A stretch of 30,348 bases of DNA, taken from contig CAYUQA010000085.1 in NCBI GenBank assembly GCA_964446135.1, positions 1-30,348 on the forward strand, written 5' to 3'. Made by a program: the position numbers and the translations under genes. Positions 25 to 17,261 of the stretch are shown here, one piece after another; position 1 is the first letter of the stretch; each line of letters starts with the position of its first letter. This stretch comes from an uncultured Candidatus Saccharibacteria bacterium (GTDB taxonomy: Bacteria; Patescibacteriota; Minisyncoccia; 2-02-FULL-40-12; IGHO2-01-FULL-4-A). The notes beneath the pieces are model-generated. The model saw nothing but the letters and a program-made list of their open reading frames with translations. It searched no databases and was not told the DNA's origin.

Positions 25-97
25 GCGCCCGTAGCTCAATCGGAAGAGCGACTGCCTTCGAAGCAGTAGGTTGTAGGTTCGAGCCCTGCCGGGCGCG
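25..97 (+). tRNA. tRNA-Arg, anticodon TCG; CCA not encoded (followed by CA)
   Basis: Cloverleaf: acceptor GCGCCCG 25-31/CGGGCGC 90-96, D-stem GCTC/GAGC with A20 Arg identity base, anticodon stem ACTGC/GCAGT around CT-TCG-AA, T-loop TTCGAGC. Confidence 0.96.
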
Positions 98-99
98 CA
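83..99 (+). repeat. 17-bp direct repeat copy 1 (tRNA-Arg 3' end, GCCCTGCCGGGCGCGCA)
   Basis: Identical to 198-214; flanking bases differ on both sides. Confidence 0.95.
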
Positions 100-214
100 G
101 TTTGTAGAATATGTCACGAATGTGACATATGACAGGCGAGAACGGTTCGATGACTGAGCGCGAGCGAAGAAATACCAAAGGCCAGCAGGCCGTGGTGGCC
201 CTGCCGGGCGCGCA
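100..214. mobile_element. 115-bp tRNA-anchored mini-element or island scar ending in a duplicate of the tRNA 3' end
   Basis: Bounded by 17-bp direct repeats; contains 9-bp perfect hairpin ATATGTCAC-GAAT-GTGACATAT (109-130), GGTTCGA T-loop copy (144-150) and an AGCA-loop hairpin (174-196). Confidence 0.5.
198..214 (+). repeat. 17-bp direct repeat copy 2 of tRNA-Arg 3' end
   Basis: Exact match to 83-99. Confidence 0.95.
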
Positions 215-3642: not shown

Positions 3643-3718
3643 CCGCCCTTAGCTCAGTTGGTAGAGCTGCTCCCTCTTAAGGAGAAGGTCGTTGGTTCGA
3701 ATCCAACAGGGCGGACCA
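3643..3718 (+). tRNA. tRNA-Lys, anticodon CTT, with encoded CCA
   Basis: Acceptor CCGCCCT/AGGGCGG, discriminator A, CCA 3716-3718; D-stem GCTC/GAGC; anticodon loop CT-CTT-AA; T-arm GTTGG-TTCGAAT-CCAAC. Confidence 0.96.
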
Positions 3719-5189
3719 TTTGAGATTTTTTACCACCAGATTCTTTATTGATGGCGTAGATATTAGATAATTTGGTGGTTCCAAATTTCTCACCGTCAAA
3801 GAACGGTTTTTCGTCAAAAATCATATTTTGGAAACGAACATTATTTGGGTGAGTCAATCTTAGCCATGTTTTAGCTGTCTCTCTTACAAAGTTAAAACAA
3901 TAATCCAGAGATTCTTCCATGTTAAACTCTTCAATATGGCTCTCCTGTAATAGTTGCCGCTTTTCGTATATTTTCTGATTAATCAAATCTTTCTGCTCAA
4001 CAAACTCCTCATCGTTATATCTGCCCGCTCTATGAAGATCAAAAATTTTTAATCTATCTTGCTCTAGATTCTCAACCTCTTTATTTATTTGAACATTCTC
4101 CTCATTAAATCTTTTGTAATTTGACTGCCAAATATCTATCATGATGGCCTTAAACATTTTCTCGTATTTTTTATTCGGAGTAATCTTGGTTAAATATTCA
4201 ACAAATAACTGTTCAAATGTTTCTTTGGGTATAAACTTTGCATTCTCGCAATTTTGACGATGGTGATGATAGTAAGGATATTTTACCCTCTTTCTTCCGG
4301 TAGAATAGCTACCGGTTATAGAGGTTCTGCAATTAGGACAGACAACTTTTCTTAAGGGGAAATTGGGATTAGCGCTTATTCTTTGTGTAGATTGAGATCT
4401 ATCTTTCTTTTTGCGCTGGCATTGATTAAATAACTCCTCACTAACTATTCCAAATGAACTTTTTATTCTCATTCCCCACACATCTATAATCCCACAATAT
4501 ATCGGATTCTTAATTATTCGCTCCATTAGTTGAGCAAAAGGTATTTTATTATTTCTAGTTCTAAATCCACGTTCACCTATGAATTTAGCCAATGCACGAT
4601 AACTATATTTGCCCTTAGCATATTCTTCGAATAAAAGTCTTATGTAAACAGAATCTTGAGGATGTGGTTCAATATTCGAACCAGAGTAAGATCTATAAAA
4701 ACCAATAGGAGCCGCCCATGTCCAAATTCCCTTCTTAAGCTGTTCCATCATGCCACTTATGCTCCTTTCTTTTCTGACGTTATTGTCTAATTCGGCAAAG
4801 ACAGAAAGCACACCCTCCATAGCCCTACCAAAAGGCGTTTCATTAATCGGCTCCGTAACTGATTTAAGCTCTGTTCCGAATTTTCTTAATATCGTCCTAA
4901 CGTTGACGTGATCATCTTGATTCCTTGCAAAACGATCTAACTTGTAAACAATAAAATAGTTAATGGGCTTTTTTTTGTTAGAACAAAGCGATATCGCTTT
5001 CATAAACTCTGGCCTGTCAGCAGTCTTAGCCGATTCTCCACGATCAACAAAAACTTTCGGATCCATAATTCCTAATTTCGTAGCATATTCACGGCATAGT
5101 CTTTCTTGCATATCTAAACTTGTTCCCTCAACCTGTTCCTTTGAAGAAACCCTACAATACAACACTCCCGTTTTTGCTGATTCGCTCAT
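3654..5189 (-). CDS. Large serine recombinase/integrase (511 aa): resolvase catalytic domain, recombinase domain, zinc ribbon, coiled coil
   Basis: LYCRVSSKEQ catalytic Ser motif, YKLDRFARN, WAAPIGFY, CPNC..YYHH..C ribbon; last 21 codons and TGA lie antisense within tRNA-Lys. Confidence 0.93.
   Translation of the reverse strand: MSESAKTGVLYCRVSSKEQVEGTSLDMQERLCREYATKLGIMDPKVFVDRGESAKTADRPEFMKAISLCSNKKKPINYFIVYKLDRFARNQDDHVNVRTILRKFGTELKSVTEPINETPFGRAMEGVLSVFAELDNNVRKERSISGMMEQLKKGIWTWAAPIGFYRSYSGSNIEPHPQDSVYIRLLFEEYAKGKYSYRALAKFIGERGFRTRNNKIPFAQLMERIIKNPIYCGIIDVWGMRIKSSFGIVSEELFNQCQRKKKDRSQSTQRISANPNFPLRKVVCPNCRTSITGSYSTGRKRVKYPYYHHHRQNCENAKFIPKETFEQLFVEYLTKITPNKKYEKMFKAIMIDIWQSNYKRFNEENVQINKEVENLEQDRLKIFDLHRAGRYNDEEFVEQKDLINQKIYEKRQLLQESHIEEFNMEESLDYCFNFVRETAKTWLRLTHPNNVRFQNMIFDEKPFFDGEKFGTTKLSNIYAINKESGGKKSQMVRPVGFEPTTFSLRGSSSTN
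3698..3716 (+). repeat. attL-like 19-bp direct repeat (CGAATCCAACAGGGCGGAC)
   Basis: Exact match to 7653-7671; runs from the T-loop to the first C of CCA. Confidence 0.93.
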
Positions 5190-5383
5190 GACTGTATTTT
5201 ATTGCTTTCCCCAAGTTTGTGCAGTATCCCAATAGGATACTTGGAACCACTTACACTATCTAGCCAATCATCAAAAATAAGCCGTCCTAACTCATAATAT
5301 TTATCGCGTATCTTAATAGCCTCATCATCAGAGATGCCATTTAATTCTGGGTCTATTTTTCTTAATTTCTCTATGTTGAGCAT
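5186..5383 (-). CDS. Small hypothetical protein (65 aa) translationally coupled to the recombinase
   Basis: Stop overlaps recombinase start (ATGA at 5186-5189); helical charged sequence. Confidence 0.7.
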   Translation of the reverse strand: MLNIEKLRKIDPELNGISDDEAIKIRDKYYELGRLIFDDWLDSVSGSKYPIGILHKLGESNKIQS

Positions 5384-5439
5384 AGGGTATCAGTCTGTAT
5401 TTATTATCTCAACCTGGGGCATTTAAAGCCCAAAGGTCC

Positions 5440-5625
5440 CTACTTTTTACTACCTTTTCTCTCTATGTCCTCTGATAGTTTTCGGTAGTAATTCTCATTC
5501 TCTAAAATTGATTTGATTGAATAAGTTTTTCCATTCGAGGGAACTATGCCGTAATAAGCTCTAACAAAAGCATCCCTTAACTCCTTATTTGGTATTTGTT
5601 CAACTAAATTTATTGTCTGGATCAT
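5440..5625 (-). CDS. Small hypothetical protein (61 aa)
   Basis: ATG start, co-oriented with island genes, AT-rich upstream spacer. Confidence 0.55.
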   Translation of the reverse strand: MIQTINLVEQIPNKELRDAFVRAYYGIVPSNGKTYSIKSILENENYYRKLSEDIERKGSKK

Positions 5626-5633
5626 ATAGTTAT

Positions 5634-5948
5634 AAATAAAAATCCGCTTAATTCGATGGGGGTACCACTTGGAATGACGACCCCCGCCGAATCAAACGGA
5701 CATTTCCCAAGTAGTTTACCGCCAAAACAGAAAAAGACCTCTCGCTAGAGGCCCTTTCTTTAAATAATCGAGAAAAAGCTCTACTAGCTCTTTCTCGCTC
5801 ACGAGGCGAAGGATTTAACCATGTTCTGTATAGGCTTAAAAATCTTCAAGCCATCAAGACGCAGTGAATTTACCGAATAACGAATCGGGGAGGATCTCAC
5901 CCCCTGATTCACCAAGCAGTTTTCTCTCTGCCTTTAGAATCTACAGTT
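5634..5948 (-). ncRNA. Candidate structured RNA or attenuator leader of the recombinase operon
   Basis: ORF-free; stem-loops at 5914-5933, 5882-5910, 5769-5797, 5736-5753 (+U-tract) and 5643-5700 (+U-tract); A-C mismatches on + become G-U pairs on -; TTGACA at 5982-5977 on - upstream. Confidence 0.4.
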
Positions 5949-5984
5949 GATTCCATTAAAGCAATTCGTGTATCTTTGTCAATC

Positions 5985-6236
5985 TTATTTGTCGATAAAT
6001 ATCATTTTTGGCACTTCGATTGTCGTCTCTATCGGCGTGACTGGTCTCCCGAACGCACGATCAAATAAAATCTGAGTTGCCTTTAAATCACCTTGCTTTG
6101 CGCGCTCTATAAGTCCAGTAACGATTAGTCCCAAAGAATTCCCAACTTGCTGAACTATATACTCTCGGAACTTCTCAGCCTGAACGCCACTAAATCCCTG
6201 TTTCCTGCCTGCATTTTCTCTATATCCACCTCTCAT
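5985..6236 (-). CDS. Hypothetical protein (83 aa) resembling phage terminase small-subunit-like/DUF5681-type proteins
   Basis: N-terminal GGYRENAGRKQG and C-terminal GDLKATQILFDRAFGRP resemble motifs remembered from such phage proteins; function not verified. Confidence 0.55.
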   Translation of the reverse strand: MRGGYRENAGRKQGFSGVQAEKFREYIVQQVGNSLGLIVTGLIERAKQGDLKATQILFDRAFGRPVTPIETTIEVPKMIFIDK

Positions 6237-6273
6237 AAAATTTGATAAGAATCAAAGATGATAATCGCAAAGA

Positions 6274-7290
6274 TTACCAAGAATTAATTTGGAAACTACC
6301 ATTGTTTATCTGCTGGGTTTGTATTCTGGTGCCACCAGGACCATAGCAGTCATAACCACCGTTAAGTGGGTGACAGATTGTTGAAGAATAGCTTCCGGAT
6401 TGATCAATATAGCCAGTATACGGTGATACGGGAAGCTTAACACCCATATCTTTGAGTTTTTGTATGGCATTGTATTCCAGCTGACTTGCCGTCCAATATC
6501 CTCCTGCTGCCTGGTATTCCTTAAGGAGTTGCTCCTTAACTTCGGCTAATTTATCGTTGTATTGTTTCCACTCGGTCTCAAATCGAGCTATTGCTGGATC
6601 TTTCTGATATTGAGCAGGTTTGTTTACGGCAGAGTTGGCAGATTGCATCTGCAACATCATTTCCCGCAAAAATTGATTAGCTTGATCCATTTGCTGACCA
6701 TAATTTTTAATCTGTTTTAATGATTGCTGTGTAGAAGCTTCAAAAGCATCTACTTGTTGGTTATATAATCCGATTGTTCTTATCTCTAGATTCTCATATT
6801 CTGCTATAACATCAGTTCTAGGATTTTCACCCTTTTTCAATCTATCAATTTCCTTATCTACCAAATCTAAAAGAGTATATTGATATCCAAGCGCAGTGGT
6901 GTTTGCATCTCTTAAGCCAGGAGCAGTGTTATTGGTTATTATTAAATTATTTTTGGTGATTTGATTTCTTAAAGCCTCAAGTCGTTGGATAACTGTTTTA
7001 TCCATTATTGGAATTGTTGTCTTTACGGTTCTCTGAACTTTTTTGACAGCAGCTCCTTTGTTCGTGTTTTTTACTTCCGAGGGTTTCGTAACATATTTTT
7101 TCTCAGATTCCTCTTTCATCATTCGTTGAAGTCCACTGGACTTATCAATTAAAGAGTCTTGTTGGACAGCTTCTTGCTTAAAAAGTTGCCAATTATCGAA
7201 CCAAGTAAAAGGATTCCACCAAGCTGCAAAAGTAACTTGCGGATAGAGTATAATTCCCAAAATCAAGCTAAATAGTATACCTTTCTTCAT
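6274..7290 (-). CDS. Secreted coiled-coil hypothetical protein (338 aa from MKKGILF) with AAWWNPFTW motif
   Basis: Signal peptide MKKGILFSLILGIILYPQVTFA; C-terminal Cys pair; start chosen at 7290 because the promoter lies at 7298-7326. Confidence 0.8.
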   Translation of the reverse strand: MKKGILFSLILGIILYPQVTFAAWWNPFTWFDNWQLFKQEAVQQDSLIDKSSGLQRMMKEESEKKYVTKPSEVKNTNKGAAVKKVQRTVKTTIPIMDKTVIQRLEALRNQITKNNLIITNNTAPGLRDANTTALGYQYTLLDLVDKEIDRLKKGENPRTDVIAEYENLEIRTIGLYNQQVDAFEASTQQSLKQIKNYGQQMDQANQFLREMMLQMQSANSAVNKPAQYQKDPAIARFETEWKQYNDKLAEVKEQLLKEYQAAGGYWTASQLEYNAIQKLKDMGVKLPVSPYTGYIDQSGSYSSTICHPLNGGYDCYGPGGTRIQTQQINNGSFQINSW

Positions 7291-7297
7291 AAAATAT

Positions 7298-7326
7298 ATT
7301 ATAACATAAAATTCTTTAGATTGCAA
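7298..7326 (-). promoter_or_regulatory. sigma70 promoter giving a leaderless mRNA for 6274-7290
   Basis: TTGCAA (7326-7321), 17 bp, TG-n-TATAAT (7303-7298); ATG lies 7 nt after the -10 box. Confidence 0.7.
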
Positions 7327-7547
7327 TTAGGGTACTTGAATCCGCTCTTCTGCGACTTTATCTCGGATTCTAATATCAGAGGGTATTATATCGCCAAGAA
7401 TAATCGCTATTTTCAAGCACTTTTCCAAAATCTCTCCATTTGTTAAGCTCTAATAATAGGTGATTCCAATTCTGTCCTATTAGGCGGACATTCTAAACAA
7501 TAAAGTCGAATTTATTTGGCTTTATTGTTTAGATATATTTTGTATCT

Positions 7548-7652
7548 TGTTGGATTCGAACGCCGGAGCGACTGTTTCGTCAGCAGACGAAACCGCGAGG
7601 CGCGGCCTGGAGACCTAGTTCCGACGGCTGGTCGGGACTAGAGTCGAAATGG
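7548..7652. repeat. tRNA T-arm mirror plus GC-rich hairpin cassette at the island right end
   Basis: 7548-7561 (TGTTGGATTCGAAC) is the exact reverse complement of tRNA-Lys 3695-3708; hairpins GTTTCGTC-AGCA-GACGAAAC (7574-7593), CCGCG-AGG-CGCGG (7593-7605), CTAGTTCCGAC-GGCTG-GTCGGGACTAG (7615-7641). Confidence 0.8.
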
Positions 7653-7671
7653 CGAATCCAACAGGGCGGAC
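7653..7671 (+). repeat. attR-like 19-bp direct repeat of tRNA-Lys 3' end
   Basis: Exact match to 3698-3716; followed by AAAC rather than CA. Confidence 0.93.
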
Positions 7672-7696: not shown

Positions 7697-8242
7697 ATGG
7701 ACTGGACAAAATTAGAATATGAGTCACGAGATATTTTAGAAGAAACAGTAATCAGAATACAAGAGGCGATTCTTGAGGTATTTAACATGAAGGGCGACAA
7801 CCGTTGCTGGCTGGCATACTTTATTATCTACGAAGCCGCTGATATCGCTACGTTGTCATCCTCGGCCAGATTTCCAAAAGAAGATTTTGGTGATCGCTGT
7901 GATCATTTTATTGAGCACAGTCCTAACCCAGATCAAATGGTCTTATGGGAAAATGCCGAGCCATATCACACATACGATGTTTCAAAAATGAATGATGCAA
8001 AACTTCGTGCATACATCAGAAGATGCCGCAAAGTAATCGGCGTCCATTACCGTAAATTCTTAACTGGTAAATACGATTACAAAGATGACCAAAAAATTAT
8101 CGCACTTCTGCCCCAAAAAATTATCTTCGACACTAGACTACCTGATAGAGAAAAAATGAGACCAAACTGTGATCGATTTTACGAGTGCAAAGAAGCACAA
8201 CTCGATAAAAACGGCTTCACCGACTGGCACCGTTGGGAATAG
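7697..8242 (+). CDS. Hypothetical protein (181 aa from MDWTKL)
   Basis: AAGGAG Shine-Dalgarno at 7686-7691 before ATG 7697; terminator follows; no recognisable family. Confidence 0.7.
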   Translation: MDWTKLEYESRDILEETVIRIQEAILEVFNMKGDNRCWLAYFIIYEAADIATLSSSARFPKEDFGDRCDHFIEHSPNPDQMVLWENAEPYHTYDVSKMNDAKLRAYIRRCRKVIGVHYRKFLTGKYDYKDDQKIIALLPQKIIFDTRLPDREKMRPNCDRFYECKEAQLDKNGFTDWHRWE

Positions 8243-8257
8243 ATTTTAAAAAAAAGT

Positions 8258-8287
8258 AATGCCGATACATAGGTGAGTATCGGCATT
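8258..8287. terminator. Bidirectional terminator between convergent genes
   Basis: AATGCCGATAC-ATAGGTGA-GTATCGGCATT 11-bp stem with A tract before and T tract after. Confidence 0.8.
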
Positions 8288-8301
8288 TTAAAATAAACTT
8301 T

Positions 8302-14310: not shown

Positions 14311-15957
14311 ATGGTCAATATCTCAACACAGTCACAAAAAAAGACAGCGGAATTGGAAAAAAAGCTCTCGTCGCTTGAGAGCGTTGAGGTTGAGAGCAAC
14401 GTCAAAGAAGAAGCCAAAAAGCTATCCTTGCCGTATGTTGATCTGTCTTCTTACCCCGTCAACGTTAACGCCCTATTTCTACTTAGTGAGCAAGACTCGC
14501 GTACTGGACAGTGCGCTGTTGTTGAAAAGGCTGGGCAGACTATCACAATCGCGGTTAGAGACCCTAAAAACAACCAGACTCTATACATATTAAACACACT
14601 GAAGGACAGGGGGTTTACAATAAATCAAGTCTTAGTATCTGAAGTTGGCCTTGAAAACGTATGGAAACGCTATAGCGAACGCCAAGAAATCAGATTTGAG
14701 AATCCAGGCATTTTAGAAATAGGCGAGGCGGATATCAAATCGATAGAGGATATCGCTAATAAATTAAGTAATCTAGCCGTCACTGACATTTTGGAGAGTA
14801 TTATTGCGGCGGCGCTTAAGGCAGGATCTTCGGACATTCACCTTGAGCCAGAAGAAAAGAGTGTTCGTCTGCGTTTTCGTATTGATGGGGTGCTTCGAGA
14901 TGTAACAAACATCAATCACGACACATATCCGGGAGTATTGTCTCGTATAAAAGTAGTCTCCGGGCTCAAACTCAATATTCACGATGCGCCGCAAGATGGT
15001 CGTTTTACAATCCGCCAGAATAAAAAAGATACTGATGTTCGCGTTTCGATATTACCCGGTGCCTATGGCGAGAATGTAGTCGCTCGTATTTTAAACCCAG
15101 AAGCAGTTACCCATAAGATCGAGGACCTCGGTATGCGACCGGCGCTTTTGGCAGAAACTCGTGAGGTATTAAAGAAAACAACTGGCGCCTTATTGACAAC
15201 GGGACCGACCGGATCAGGAAAAACGACTACACTCTATGCGTTCCTTGAGGAAGTAAACAATTCTGGCGTTAAAATCATCACCATAGAGGACCCAATCGAG
15301 TATCACGTTCAAGGGGTTTCACAAACACAAGTGGACGATACGGCTGACTATACATTTGCTGATGGTTTGCGATCGATTATGCGACAAGATCCGGACGTGA
15401 TTCTGGTTGGAGAAATTCGCGATGGTGAGACAGCCGAGATCGCCATGCAGGCAGCGCTTACAGGACACTTTGTTTTTTCAACACTTCACACCAACGACGC
15501 CGCCGGAGCCATTCCGAGACTGATTGATCTAGGCGTAACTCCCATTACTATAGCTCCGGCTATCAAAGCGGTTATGGCCCAACGCCTTATTAGGCGCATA
15601 TGTAGCGCCTGTGCTGAGAAGAAGTCAATCACAGCAAGTGATAAGGCGACGCTAGAAAAATATTTTAAAAATCTACCGGATAAACAAGCGATTGATATTA
15701 GCTCCATTTCCGAGCTTACATATCCAAAAGGTTGTGATGCCTGTGATAAATCAGGATATAAAGGACGCGTCGGGGTATTCGAACTTTTTACTATTGATGA
15801 CGAGATCGAAAAGTTAATTCTACAATCACCTGCGATATCGACAGTCAGGGATATTGCGATTAAAAAGGGCATGGTCCCGATGTTGCAAGACGGTTTATTG
15901 CGAGTAATTGAAGGTATGACAACCGTCGATGAGGTGATTAGAGTAGTTGGAACGTAA
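14311..15957 (+). CDS. pilB: Type IV pilus assembly/type II secretion ATPase, PilB/GspE family (548 aa)
   Basis: SDIHLEP, Walker A GPTGSGKTT, Asp box TIEDPIEY, Walker B RQDPDVILVGEIRD, His box TLHTND, CxxC..CxxC zinc site. Confidence 0.9.
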   Translation: MVNISTQSQKKTAELEKKLSSLESVEVESNVKEEAKKLSLPYVDLSSYPVNVNALFLLSEQDSRTGQCAVVEKAGQTITIAVRDPKNNQTLYILNTLKDRGFTINQVLVSEVGLENVWKRYSERQEIRFENPGILEIGEADIKSIEDIANKLSNLAVTDILESIIAAALKAGSSDIHLEPEEKSVRLRFRIDGVLRDVTNINHDTYPGVLSRIKVVSGLKLNIHDAPQDGRFTIRQNKKDTDVRVSILPGAYGENVVARILNPEAVTHKIEDLGMRPALLAETREVLKKTTGALLTTGPTGSGKTTTLYAFLEEVNNSGVKIITIEDPIEYHVQGVSQTQVDDTADYTFADGLRSIMRQDPDVILVGEIRDGETAEIAMQAALTGHFVFSTLHTNDAAGAIPRLIDLGVTPITIAPAIKAVMAQRLIRRICSACAEKKSITASDKATLEKYFKNLPDKQAIDISSISELTYPKGCDACDKSGYKGRVGVFELFTIDDEIEKLILQSPAISTVRDIAIKKGMVPMLQDGLLRVIEGMTTVDEVIRVVGT

Positions 15958-16125
15958 ACGAACCCTGACAATCCGCAAGCACTCTCCCGCATCTTAATAA
16001 AACGCGGGGTAGAATAATAGCGAGGTATATCCCAGTCGAAACCAAGATACCCGTCAACAAGAATATTCCAATTGAATCCGATGTCTCCAACAAGATTCAT
16101 GTGCCTGCGGATTGTCAGGGTTCGT
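15958..16125 (-). ncRNA. 6S RNA-like rod-shaped ncRNA (168 nt)
   Basis: 25-bp closing stem (20-bp perfect IR + G-U + 4 bp on -), central region, terminal stem with UUCG tetraloop at 16037-16040 near the midpoint; G-U pairs favour -; TAAGTT -10 candidate at 16137-16132. Confidence 0.6.
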
Positions 16126-16157
16126 ATCAAAAACTTACTACGTAACAACAAATTTAA

Positions 16158-16189
16158 TAAAAAAGCCTTGTAATAACAAAGCTTTTTTA
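16158..16189. terminator. Bidirectional terminator-like hairpin between pilB/ncRNA and ruvB
   Basis: TAAAAAAGC-C-TTGT-AATA-ACAA-A-GCTTTTTTA. Confidence 0.6.
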
Positions 16190-16226
16190 CAAAGAATGTG
16201 CTTAAAGTATACCAAATATTACCACT

Positions 16227-17261
16227 ATGTCAAGGCCAGTCGGTACAGAAAATATCATCGCAAGCCCATCGCAGAATAATGACGAAGTCACCTTTGACTT
16301 AGCTCTTCGGCCACAGGCATTTGATGAGTACATCGGCCAAGAACAGGTTAAGCGCAATTTAAAAATATTAATTGGTGCCGCAAGCAAACGAGGCGAGGCT
16401 CTGGAGCACATCCTAATACATGGCCCATCGGGTCTAGGTAAGACGACACTATCCTATCTTATAGCAAAAGAATTTGGCGCAGCCATAAAAATCACATCTG
16501 GCACTGCGCTTGAAAAGGCTGGTGATATTGGATCCATTCTTACTGGCCTTAGCGATGGTGATTTTTTGTTTATTGATGAAGTGCATAGGCTCAACAAGGC
16601 AGTCGAGGAGACGCTATACCCGGCAATGGAGAACTACAATCTAGATATTATTATCGGCAAAGGTGTCTCGGCAAAAACACTACAAGTGAAGCTCCCGCGC
16701 TTCACTCTGATCGCCGCCACCACAAGAATATCGCTTTTATCCAACCCGTTTCGCTCTCGTTTTGGCGCACATTATAAGTTAGATTTTTATACAACCGAGG
16801 AAATCAGTCGAATATTAGGTCGCTCTGCGAGACTGCTGAATATAGAGATAGACAGCGATGCACTTACAATCATCGCGCAAGCATCTCGCCTGACACCACG
16901 TATCGCGAATAGACTACTAAAGCGCGTCCGAGATTATACACAAGTCCAAAATGCCGAACGCATCACAAAGTCATTAGCTCTTCTGGCGCTGGAGCTCATT
17001 GGCATTGATAATATTGGTCTTGATGATACTGATCGAAAAATATTGCGGATAATAGGTCAAAACTTCCAAGGTGGTCCGGTTGGACTTAAATCAATAGCCG
17101 CCGCCATAGCAGAAGAAGAAGAAACCGTTGAAGATGTTTATGAACCCTACTTACTACAACTCGGCTTGATTGCTCGCACAAGTCGAGGTAGAGTAATAAC
17201 CGATATCGGTAGGGTTCACATAGGCTTAGCTGTCGAACAAAGAGAACAATCTTTTCTATGA
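16227..17261 (+). CDS. ruvB: Holliday junction branch-migration ATPase RuvB (344 aa)
   Basis: LRPQAFDEYIGQ, GPSGLGKTT, FIDEVHRL, YPAMENY, TPRIANRLLKRVRD, EPYLLQLG..RGR. Confidence 0.97.
   Translation: MSRPVGTENIIASPSQNNDEVTFDLALRPQAFDEYIGQEQVKRNLKILIGAASKRGEALEHILIHGPSGLGKTTLSYLIAKEFGAAIKITSGTALEKAGDIGSILTGLSDGDFLFIDEVHRLNKAVEETLYPAMENYNLDIIIGKGVSAKTLQVKLPRFTLIAATTRISLLSNPFRSRFGAHYKLDFYTTEEISRILGRSARLLNIEIDSDALTIIAQASRLTPRIANRLLKRVRDYTQVQNAERITKSLALLALELIGIDNIGLDDTDRKILRIIGQNFQGGPVGLKSIAAAIAEEEETVEDVYEPYLLQLGLIARTSRGRVITDIGRVHIGLAVEQREQSFL

Follow-up and report, generated by a model that had tools for sequence, protein, structure and literature searches.

The pilB-ruvB Locus

The window, i.e., the whole 30,348-nt stretch of DNA analyzed here, encodes a structured RNA with a body of 168 nt in the gap between pilB and ruvB. 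The RNA is read from the minus strand, and the two protein genes are on the plus strand. Placement between these neighbors had been part of the original prediction for this DNA, and Pfam matches confirmed both (T2SSE and RuvB, Table 1).

The same arrangement is found in the other genomes in which synteny was looked at, a check recommended with the prediction. The ruvB gene is upstream and divergent in 55/55 loci; pilB is downstream and convergent in 54/55, and the remaining locus ends at a contig edge. The promoter overlaps the ruvB start and the end of the RNA overlaps the pilB stop; these overlaps suffice to fix the gene order, and a functional link is not thereby proven.

Table 1. Features of the pilB-ruvB region (window coordinates).
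Feature	Position	Strand	Evidence or remark
pilB-type ATPase gene, convergent with the RNA gene	14311..15957	+	Pfam T2SSE, E 9e-120
RNA body: closing helix P1 and three hairpins, four-way junction	15958..16125	-	MFE; R1 156.7 bits; covariation
P1 3' arm, 25 nt; begins right after the pilB stop codon (other strand), followed by a U-rich stretch	15958..15982	-	
P4, 3'-side junction hairpin, CCCGCGUUUU/AAGAUGCGGG	15986..16008	-	fold
P3, long irregular apical arm, UUCG cap at 16037-16040	16010..16070	-	fold
P2, 5'-side junction hairpin, UGAAUCU/GGAUUCA	16073..16099	-	fold
P1 5' arm, 25 nt	16101..16125	-	fold
5' leader of the primary transcript, ~74 nt (putative)	16126..16199	-	inferred from promoter position
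TAAGTT box	16132..16137	-	present; no -35 partner, missed by promoter scan, not conserved
Leader hairpin, A/U-flanked, terminator-like in both directions	16157..16190	.	similar leaders in many but not all relatives
RNA-gene promoter (predicted): TTGACA (16233-16228), 16 nt, TG-n-TATACT (to 16206)	16206..16233	-	promoter scan, 11/12 matches, TG extension
ruvB, divergent from the RNA gene	16227..17261	+	Pfam RuvB_N/RuvB_C, E 7e-68

Fold of the RNA

The ends of the RNA are joined in the closing helix P1, where nucleotides 1-25 (16125-16101) pair with nucleotides 144-168 (15982-15958) in 25 pairs with no gap. Because one of the 25 pairs is G.U, the arms are 96% complementary as DNA. P1 opens into a four-way junction with the hairpins P2 and P4 on either side and the arm P3 opposite, its UUCG cap at nucleotides 86-89 of 168, the midpoint. 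An uninterrupted 25-bp closing helix, a hairpin on each central strand and an irregular inner helix with a UUCG loop at its middle had all been predicted from the sequence and are present. The 'central bubble' that 6S RNAs have is not, as the junction is closed and the side hairpins are kept by covariation. The minus strand folds to a minimum free energy of -85.1 kcal/mol, compared to -45.5 ± 4.1 kcal/mol in dinucleotide shuffles (z = -9.7, 0/200 shuffles as stable). The plus strand of the same region reaches only -65.2 kcal/mol; the 20 kcal/mol advantage of the minus strand arises because 11 pairs are G.U.

Relatives of the RNA vary in length from 156 to 191 nt, with the ends closed by P1. 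The four-way architecture was recovered in 39 of 45 independent folds, with a median of 6 unpaired nucleotides at the junction. P1 is a continuous helix of 21-26 bp (median 24 bp, 95.5% of cells paired). The family consensus of P1, CUGUAGGCAA/UUGCCUACAG, is replaced in this genome by CCGCAGGCAC/GUGCUUGCGG, a difference of three compensated pairs. In P2 all six modelled pairs vary on both sides among relatives. P3 keeps a tandem U.G/G.U and a CCUCG(G) segment, and in some relatives its cap is replaced by insertions of ~20 nt. The letters of the P4 stem are wholly different between families; the hairpin is nonetheless formed in every relative folded.

Conservation and Strand

BLASTN detected related sequence in 12 of 60 relatives. 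All 12 fold into the shape seen here, with the helices spelled in different letters. An alignment of 13 sequences has 49 consensus pairs, 26 with compensatory changes, and the covariance model R1 was built from it; R2 is a broader model. With 39 relatives from many families of the class, compensatory change was observed for 44 of 51 pairs, and 94.7% of the pair cells were standard, as opposed to 77% in shuffled sequences and 35-49% when the partners were slid. Three G.U positions are nearly invariant, one at the base of P3 and two forming the tandem U.G/G.U near its tip. At such positions the opposite strand would have A.C mismatches. Across the order, model scores are 120-175 bits on the RNA strand and 45-57 bits on the opposite one. 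The window itself reaches 156.7 bits under R1 and 142.7 bits under R2, and all features that define the family are present: the P1-P2-P3-P4 four-way junction, the junction-proximal GGCAA/UUGCC helix, the tandem U.G/G.U near a UNCG-capped P3, and the pilB-ruvB locus. Its own genome, of 709 kb, has one copy of the element. Copy number, covariation, strand-specific scores and conserved G.U positions together exclude a coding region, a MITE and an inverted repeat that matters only as DNA.

No Rfam family (Rfam 15) matches the RNA, either in the window or in 20 diverse relatives. Literature searches, whose coverage was not exhaustive, also turned up no description of it. On this comparative evidence, the pilB-ruvB gap holds a single-copy, minus-strand gene for a structured RNA of an undescribed family. 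The original prediction had offered two identities, ssrS or a new rod-shaped RNA; it is the second that is borne out, as a conserved, covariation-supported RNA gene present once in the genome.

Distribution

In 101 of the order's 105 genomes R1 matched one locus and no more, with all 49 genera represented. In the class as a whole this narrow model found the RNA in 78 of 151 genomes. In a phylum sample of 401 genomes, R2 matched 16 of 24 class members and 1 of 377 others. Contigs with matches are labelled Candidatus Yanofskybacteria, Azambacteria, Paceibacteria/Paceibacterota and Parcubacteria. These model searches indicate an RNA that its order (Yanofskybacteria-type Paceibacteria/Parcubacteria) carries universally, that is widespread through the class, and that hardly occurs elsewhere in the phylum.

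The sole R2 match outside the class (L094, G627:C2:22245-22414) scored 35.5 bits, with 14 bits on the other strand. It has a four-armed shape, a similar P3 tip (UUUGGCUUCGGCUGAAU) and a bulged closing helix. Neither pilB nor ruvB occurs within 2.5 kb, and the wider context was uninformative. The family may have a distant relative here, outside its own class.

Inverted repeats that resemble P1 occur elsewhere. Three elements of ~170 nt (L204 and L205 from IMG/VR, and L154) have terminal inverted repeats of 17-24 bp and the core AUACUGUAGGCAA in common with the family P1. They differ in their interiors and score about equally on the two strands, and the common core was judged to be chance sharing of a 10-mer among many inverted-repeat elements. 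About 17 chance matches are expected for the search pattern in 596 Gb. The matches in two IMG/VR contigs and in MAGs labelled Verrucomicrobiales, Enterobacteriaceae and Rhodohalobacter were set aside as unrelated repeats, since they lack pilB and ruvB, have unrelated interiors, and score about equally on both strands or weakly.

Transcription Signals and Ends

A strong sigma-70-type promoter is predicted on the first codons of ruvB, its -35 hexamer overlapping bases 2-7 of the reading frame (ATGTCAA). In relatives, TTGACA-17-TAnnnT, often TG-extended, is found upstream of P1 on the RNA strand in 42 of 45 cases. About 25 of those 42 have CAT right after TTGACA, i.e., the same overlap with the ruvB start. 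The TAAGTT box singled out in the original prediction does lie 6 nt before the first paired base. A promoter role for it is unsupported: it has no -35 partner and is not conserved, and the scan picks TTGACA-16-TGnTATACT instead, as in relatives. Inspection by eye of the complement of P1 revealed no properly spaced, conserved promoter for ruvB.

The primary transcript in this genome would be ~240 nt long. Among relatives the leader between promoter and P1 ranges from 4 to 118 nt, and such variable length suggests 5' processing. At the other end, P1 reaches exactly to the pilB stop codon and a U-rich stretch comes next; P1 therefore probably also terminates the transcript. The outer half of P1 is conserved in pairing only, the inner half in sequence, and the genome has an RNase III signature. 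Taken with the variable leaders and a helix length of more than 20 bp, these traits suggest that P1 probably serves as a processing stalk too. The mature RNA would then be the 168-nt body, or the body trimmed within P1. The stalks that RNase III processes in rRNA precursors are similar in that the sequences flanking a stable RNA on its 5' and 3' sides pair in a nearly perfect helix of more than 20 bp, with an outer half where only pairing matters and with variable leaders. The likeness extends to P1 only, where cleavage is predicted, and the enclosed RNA is not an rRNA.

A short hairpin and a U run between promoter and P1 occur in many, not all, relatives (L023, L035-L037, L045, L046, L060, L071, L073 and L075). 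The leader hairpin could be an attenuator, a tiny transcript in its own right, or a signal that serves the opposite strand.

Comparison with 6S RNA and Ms1

6S RNA is described as a rod whose arms are imperfect and whose central bubble has relatively little structure; the B-DNA-like geometry of the paired parts has been called a major part of promoter mimicry (PMC8876501). The check with the Rfam 6S model (RF00013, threshold 46.4 bits) that accompanied the original prediction was run and gave no match in the window region at the gathering level or at E ≤ 10. It also gave nothing over the cut-off in 31 relatives and no match at E ≤ 10 in 20 diverse family members; identification as ssrS is thus unsupported, with no score for the window or these 20 at any threshold. 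The model works on control genomes. In the phylum sample it finds full-length 6S in 39 of 401 genomes (8 above cut-off), all outside the class. None of ~53 class genomes has a match, and no genome carries both 6S and the new RNA. The canonical 6S genes of the Candidate Phyla Radiation (CPR) fold as classical rods in which the 5' bubble strand is open and the 3' strand forms a hairpin, and they are not recognized by R2.

The genomic locations are also distinct. Neither pilB nor ruvB is near the six best 6S loci of other classes, and orthology with canonical CPR 6S by synteny was rejected because the loci differ. Five of those six best loci (L088-L092) adjoin a gene for a small M50-like membrane metalloprotease (HExxH ... 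NLLPxxPLDG), and a DNA polymerase III delta'-like gene is often close by. The protease neighbor may be a useful synteny marker for annotating 6S in CPR genomes.

The new RNA and 6S have several characteristics in common. Both are ~160-190 nt and single-copy, with a strong promoter, lineage-wide occurrence and ends paired in a long stem; both have a long apical arm opposite the closing stem, with hairpins possible on the two strands between. In contrast to 6S, with a bubble of a dozen or more nucleotides per strand, the new RNA has ~6 unpaired nucleotides at a closed junction; it keeps specific sequence blocks and G.U pairs; and its irregular arm is P3, with P1 unbroken where 6S arms are bulged. 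When the inner 5' strand of P1 was held open, as a computational proxy for pRNA release, no conserved alternative helix appeared in 39 relatives. Membership in the 6S family was rejected on the lack of any model score, the closed junction, the perfect P1 and the different locus.

Ms1 provides another comparison. In Actinobacteria 6S is absent and Ms1 is present, in strict synteny (PMC9130861). Like the new RNA, Ms1 is a clade-specific, rod-like RNA with a strict gene neighborhood in a lineage without detectable canonical 6S, and it was found by structure and synteny rather than by sequence (PMC9130861). It differs in being ~300 nt, with a central bubble and terminal hairpins, and in having proven binding to the polymerase core. 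Membership in Ms1 was rejected, as size and architecture differ and no Rfam match was found.

Alternative Explanations

The RNA could still be the 6S of its class in function, either a very derived ssrS or an Ms1-like analogue that serves as a promoter decoy for RNA polymerase. P1 would then be the downstream duplex, P3 the upstream duplex, and P2 and P4 structured versions of the bubble strands. Size (156-191 nt), strong promoter, single copy and lineage-wide occurrence are consistent with such a role, and so is the succession of elements (first the closing stem, then the 5' hairpin, the apical arm and the 3' hairpin), which is that of canonical CPR 6S, with its weak 5' and clear 3' bubble hairpin, and of B. 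subtilis 6S-1 (PMC8876501). There is the Ms1 precedent, and the ortholog of the M50-like protease gene in this genome has a spacer of only ~90 nt, with no hidden 6S there. 6S-model matches occur only outside the class and never together with the new RNA, but since 6S is detectable in only ~10% of other CPR genomes, its absence from the class and the complementary distribution are weak evidence. Set against all this are the mutual blindness of the 6S model and R2, the lack of an open bubble, side hairpins that covariation maintains, a perfect P1 in place of bulge-interrupted arms, no conserved release helix to form as the template strand opens, and a different locus. A 6S-like function is best regarded as doubtful. 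The possibility of a highly divergent SRP (4.5S) RNA is practically nil. It is suggested by an RNA universal in an order whose class has no detectable SRP RNA. RF00169 matched none of 16 relatives and none of 151 class genomes; RF01854 likewise matched none of the 16. However, the protein partner is missing as well: the Ffh M domain (PF02978) was absent in 13 of 13 relatives and over the cut-off in 0 of 151 class genomes, compared to 14 of 14 controls, and this genome has no SRP-type GTPase motifs. Nor does the genome have a GGAAGCAGC-type helix-8 motif in an RNA context, and the RNA itself lacks both the helix-8 motif and a GNAR loop. Because the class has neither Ffh nor SRP RNA, the new RNA is not its SRP RNA, and that identity is refuted as far as sequence allows. 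The loss was already published: Nelson and Stegen reported in 2015 that Parcubacteria lack ffh and ffs (PMC4508563).

The invariant position next to ruvB and pilB invites local explanations. A cis-encoded antisense regulator of one or both genes could act by duplex formation and RNase III cleavage, or by collision or occlusion between overlapping divergent promoters. Both genes are on the plus strand, so that read-through from pilB or a ruvB transcript started upstream would be fully complementary to the RNA; the -35 hexamer is on the ruvB start, the RNA ends directly next to the pilB stop codon, and the genome has a gene for RNase III. Antisense action, however, needs sequence and not shape, and here compensatory changes and conserved G.U pairs indicate that the fold is selected. 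Two rod-like, self-paired RNAs would anneal poorly, overlapping signals can fix gene order without regulatory meaning, and the possible out-of-class relative is at another locus, which makes antisense regulation improbable. An RNA mimic of a four-way (Holliday) junction, acting on or with RuvB from the usual ruvA slot, would account for the junction shape and the constant ruvB adjacency. It is very unlikely, given that an A-form RNA junction poorly mimics a DNA junction and that the RNA gene is on the opposite strand. The proposal that the RNA replaces RuvA was rejected. RuvA is encoded at contig C64:9416-9940 (E 5e-27 against E. coli RuvA), so nothing is missing for the RNA to replace. A DNA-level element, be it a MITE, a cruciform-forming inverted repeat or a bidirectional terminator, would explain the 25-nt terminal inverted repeats and a plus strand that also folds well (-65 kcal/mol). 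It is scarcely credible for an element with its own consensus promoter, 11 G.U pairs and model scores three times higher on the minus strand; the pattern matches in viral and odd-taxon contigs are unrelated inverted repeats. Dispersed copies, which would have marked a MITE, were looked for, and instead there is one copy here and one per genome in 101 genomes of the order, with constant neighbors. A single-copy element is not a MITE.

Other Elements in the Genome

SRP loss in the class (no Ffh M domain, no SRP RNA) was observed over 151 genomes, a larger-sample confirmation of the earlier report (PMC4508563).

Two tRNA genes in the window are associated with repeats. The 19-nt 3' end of tRNA-Lys (3698-3716) is perfectly repeated at 7653-7671, and a large serine recombinase of 511 aa (Resolvase, Recombinase and Zn ribbon domains) is encoded at the tRNA on the minus strand (3654-5189). 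The whole (3643-7671) resembles an element of ~4 kb that integrated between att repeats; its other ORFs had no Pfam match. For tRNA-Arg (83-99), a perfect copy of the 17-nt 3' end is found at 198-214, only 115 nt downstream (window 25-214), and may be an integration or excision scar.

On contig C15 (~7750-8300), two neighboring stretches have at their end a T-arm-like GGGUUCAAAUCCC and then GCCCCCGCAAC; one of them starts with GGGGGUGUUGGAUUUGAAC, like the 5' end of a tmRNA. A quick ARAGORN run reported no tmRNA in the genome. Together these suggest that this genome may have an unusual or a split tmRNA.

Proposed Role and Significance

The conserved letters of the RNA are paired or adjacent to the junction: GGCAA/UUGCC where P1 meets the junction, the initial pairs of P2, the G.U at the base of P3, CCUCGG in mid-P3 and the tandem wobble under the UNCG cap. 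Loop sequences vary freely, and the P3 tip accepts insertions of 20 nt. Conservation in or next to helices, with the loops free, suggests that the RNA is recognized by protein as a shaped object and is not a base-pairing regulator. With moderate confidence, it is proposed to be a housekeeping RNA of a new family, stable and protein-binding, that would act in trans as a scaffold for protein and not by base-pairing with targets. The only concrete candidate for the partner would be RNA polymerase, in a 6S- or Ms1-like role, and that assignment is itself unlikely. Two observations count against this reading: the fixed pilB-ruvB position could mean a local role in cis, and in this genome a terminator-like hairpin intervenes between promoter and RNA body.

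Further parallels are the orphan noncoding RNAs of the raiA, OLE, ROOL and GOLLD type, which are also defined only by covariation and distribution, likely have a protein partner and have no assigned job. In contrast to these, the new RNA is confined to one CPR class, with one per genome at an invariant locus, and it is much smaller than OLE, ROOL or GOLLD.

Lineage-universal, single-copy, strongly promoted RNAs almost always belong to central machinery. Bacteria are known to have only a handful of classes of this kind, and outside these genomes SRP RNA occurs universally. The class with the new RNA has lost SRP and has no detectable canonical 6S. A more tentative possibility is that the RNA is the core of an unrecognized housekeeping ribonucleoprotein that arose in the ancestor of Paceibacteria, perhaps with a job that has no counterpart among the near-universal bacterial RNAs (rRNA, tRNA, RNase P, tmRNA, SRP and 6S).

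Paceibacteria, ultra-small bacteria of the CPR, are among the most abundant uncultivated bacteria and have tiny genomes. These genomes are reduced enough to have shed SRP, yet all 49 sampled genera of the order keep a 170-nt RNA at one place. Models R1 and R2 permit annotation of its gene in hundreds of genomes. Minisyncoccus archaeiphilus, a member of the phylum that grows in co-culture, would open the way to experiments, provided that it falls within this class and has the RNA. The partner, once found, would lead either to RNA polymerase regulation without canonical 6S or to a new ribonucleoprotein.
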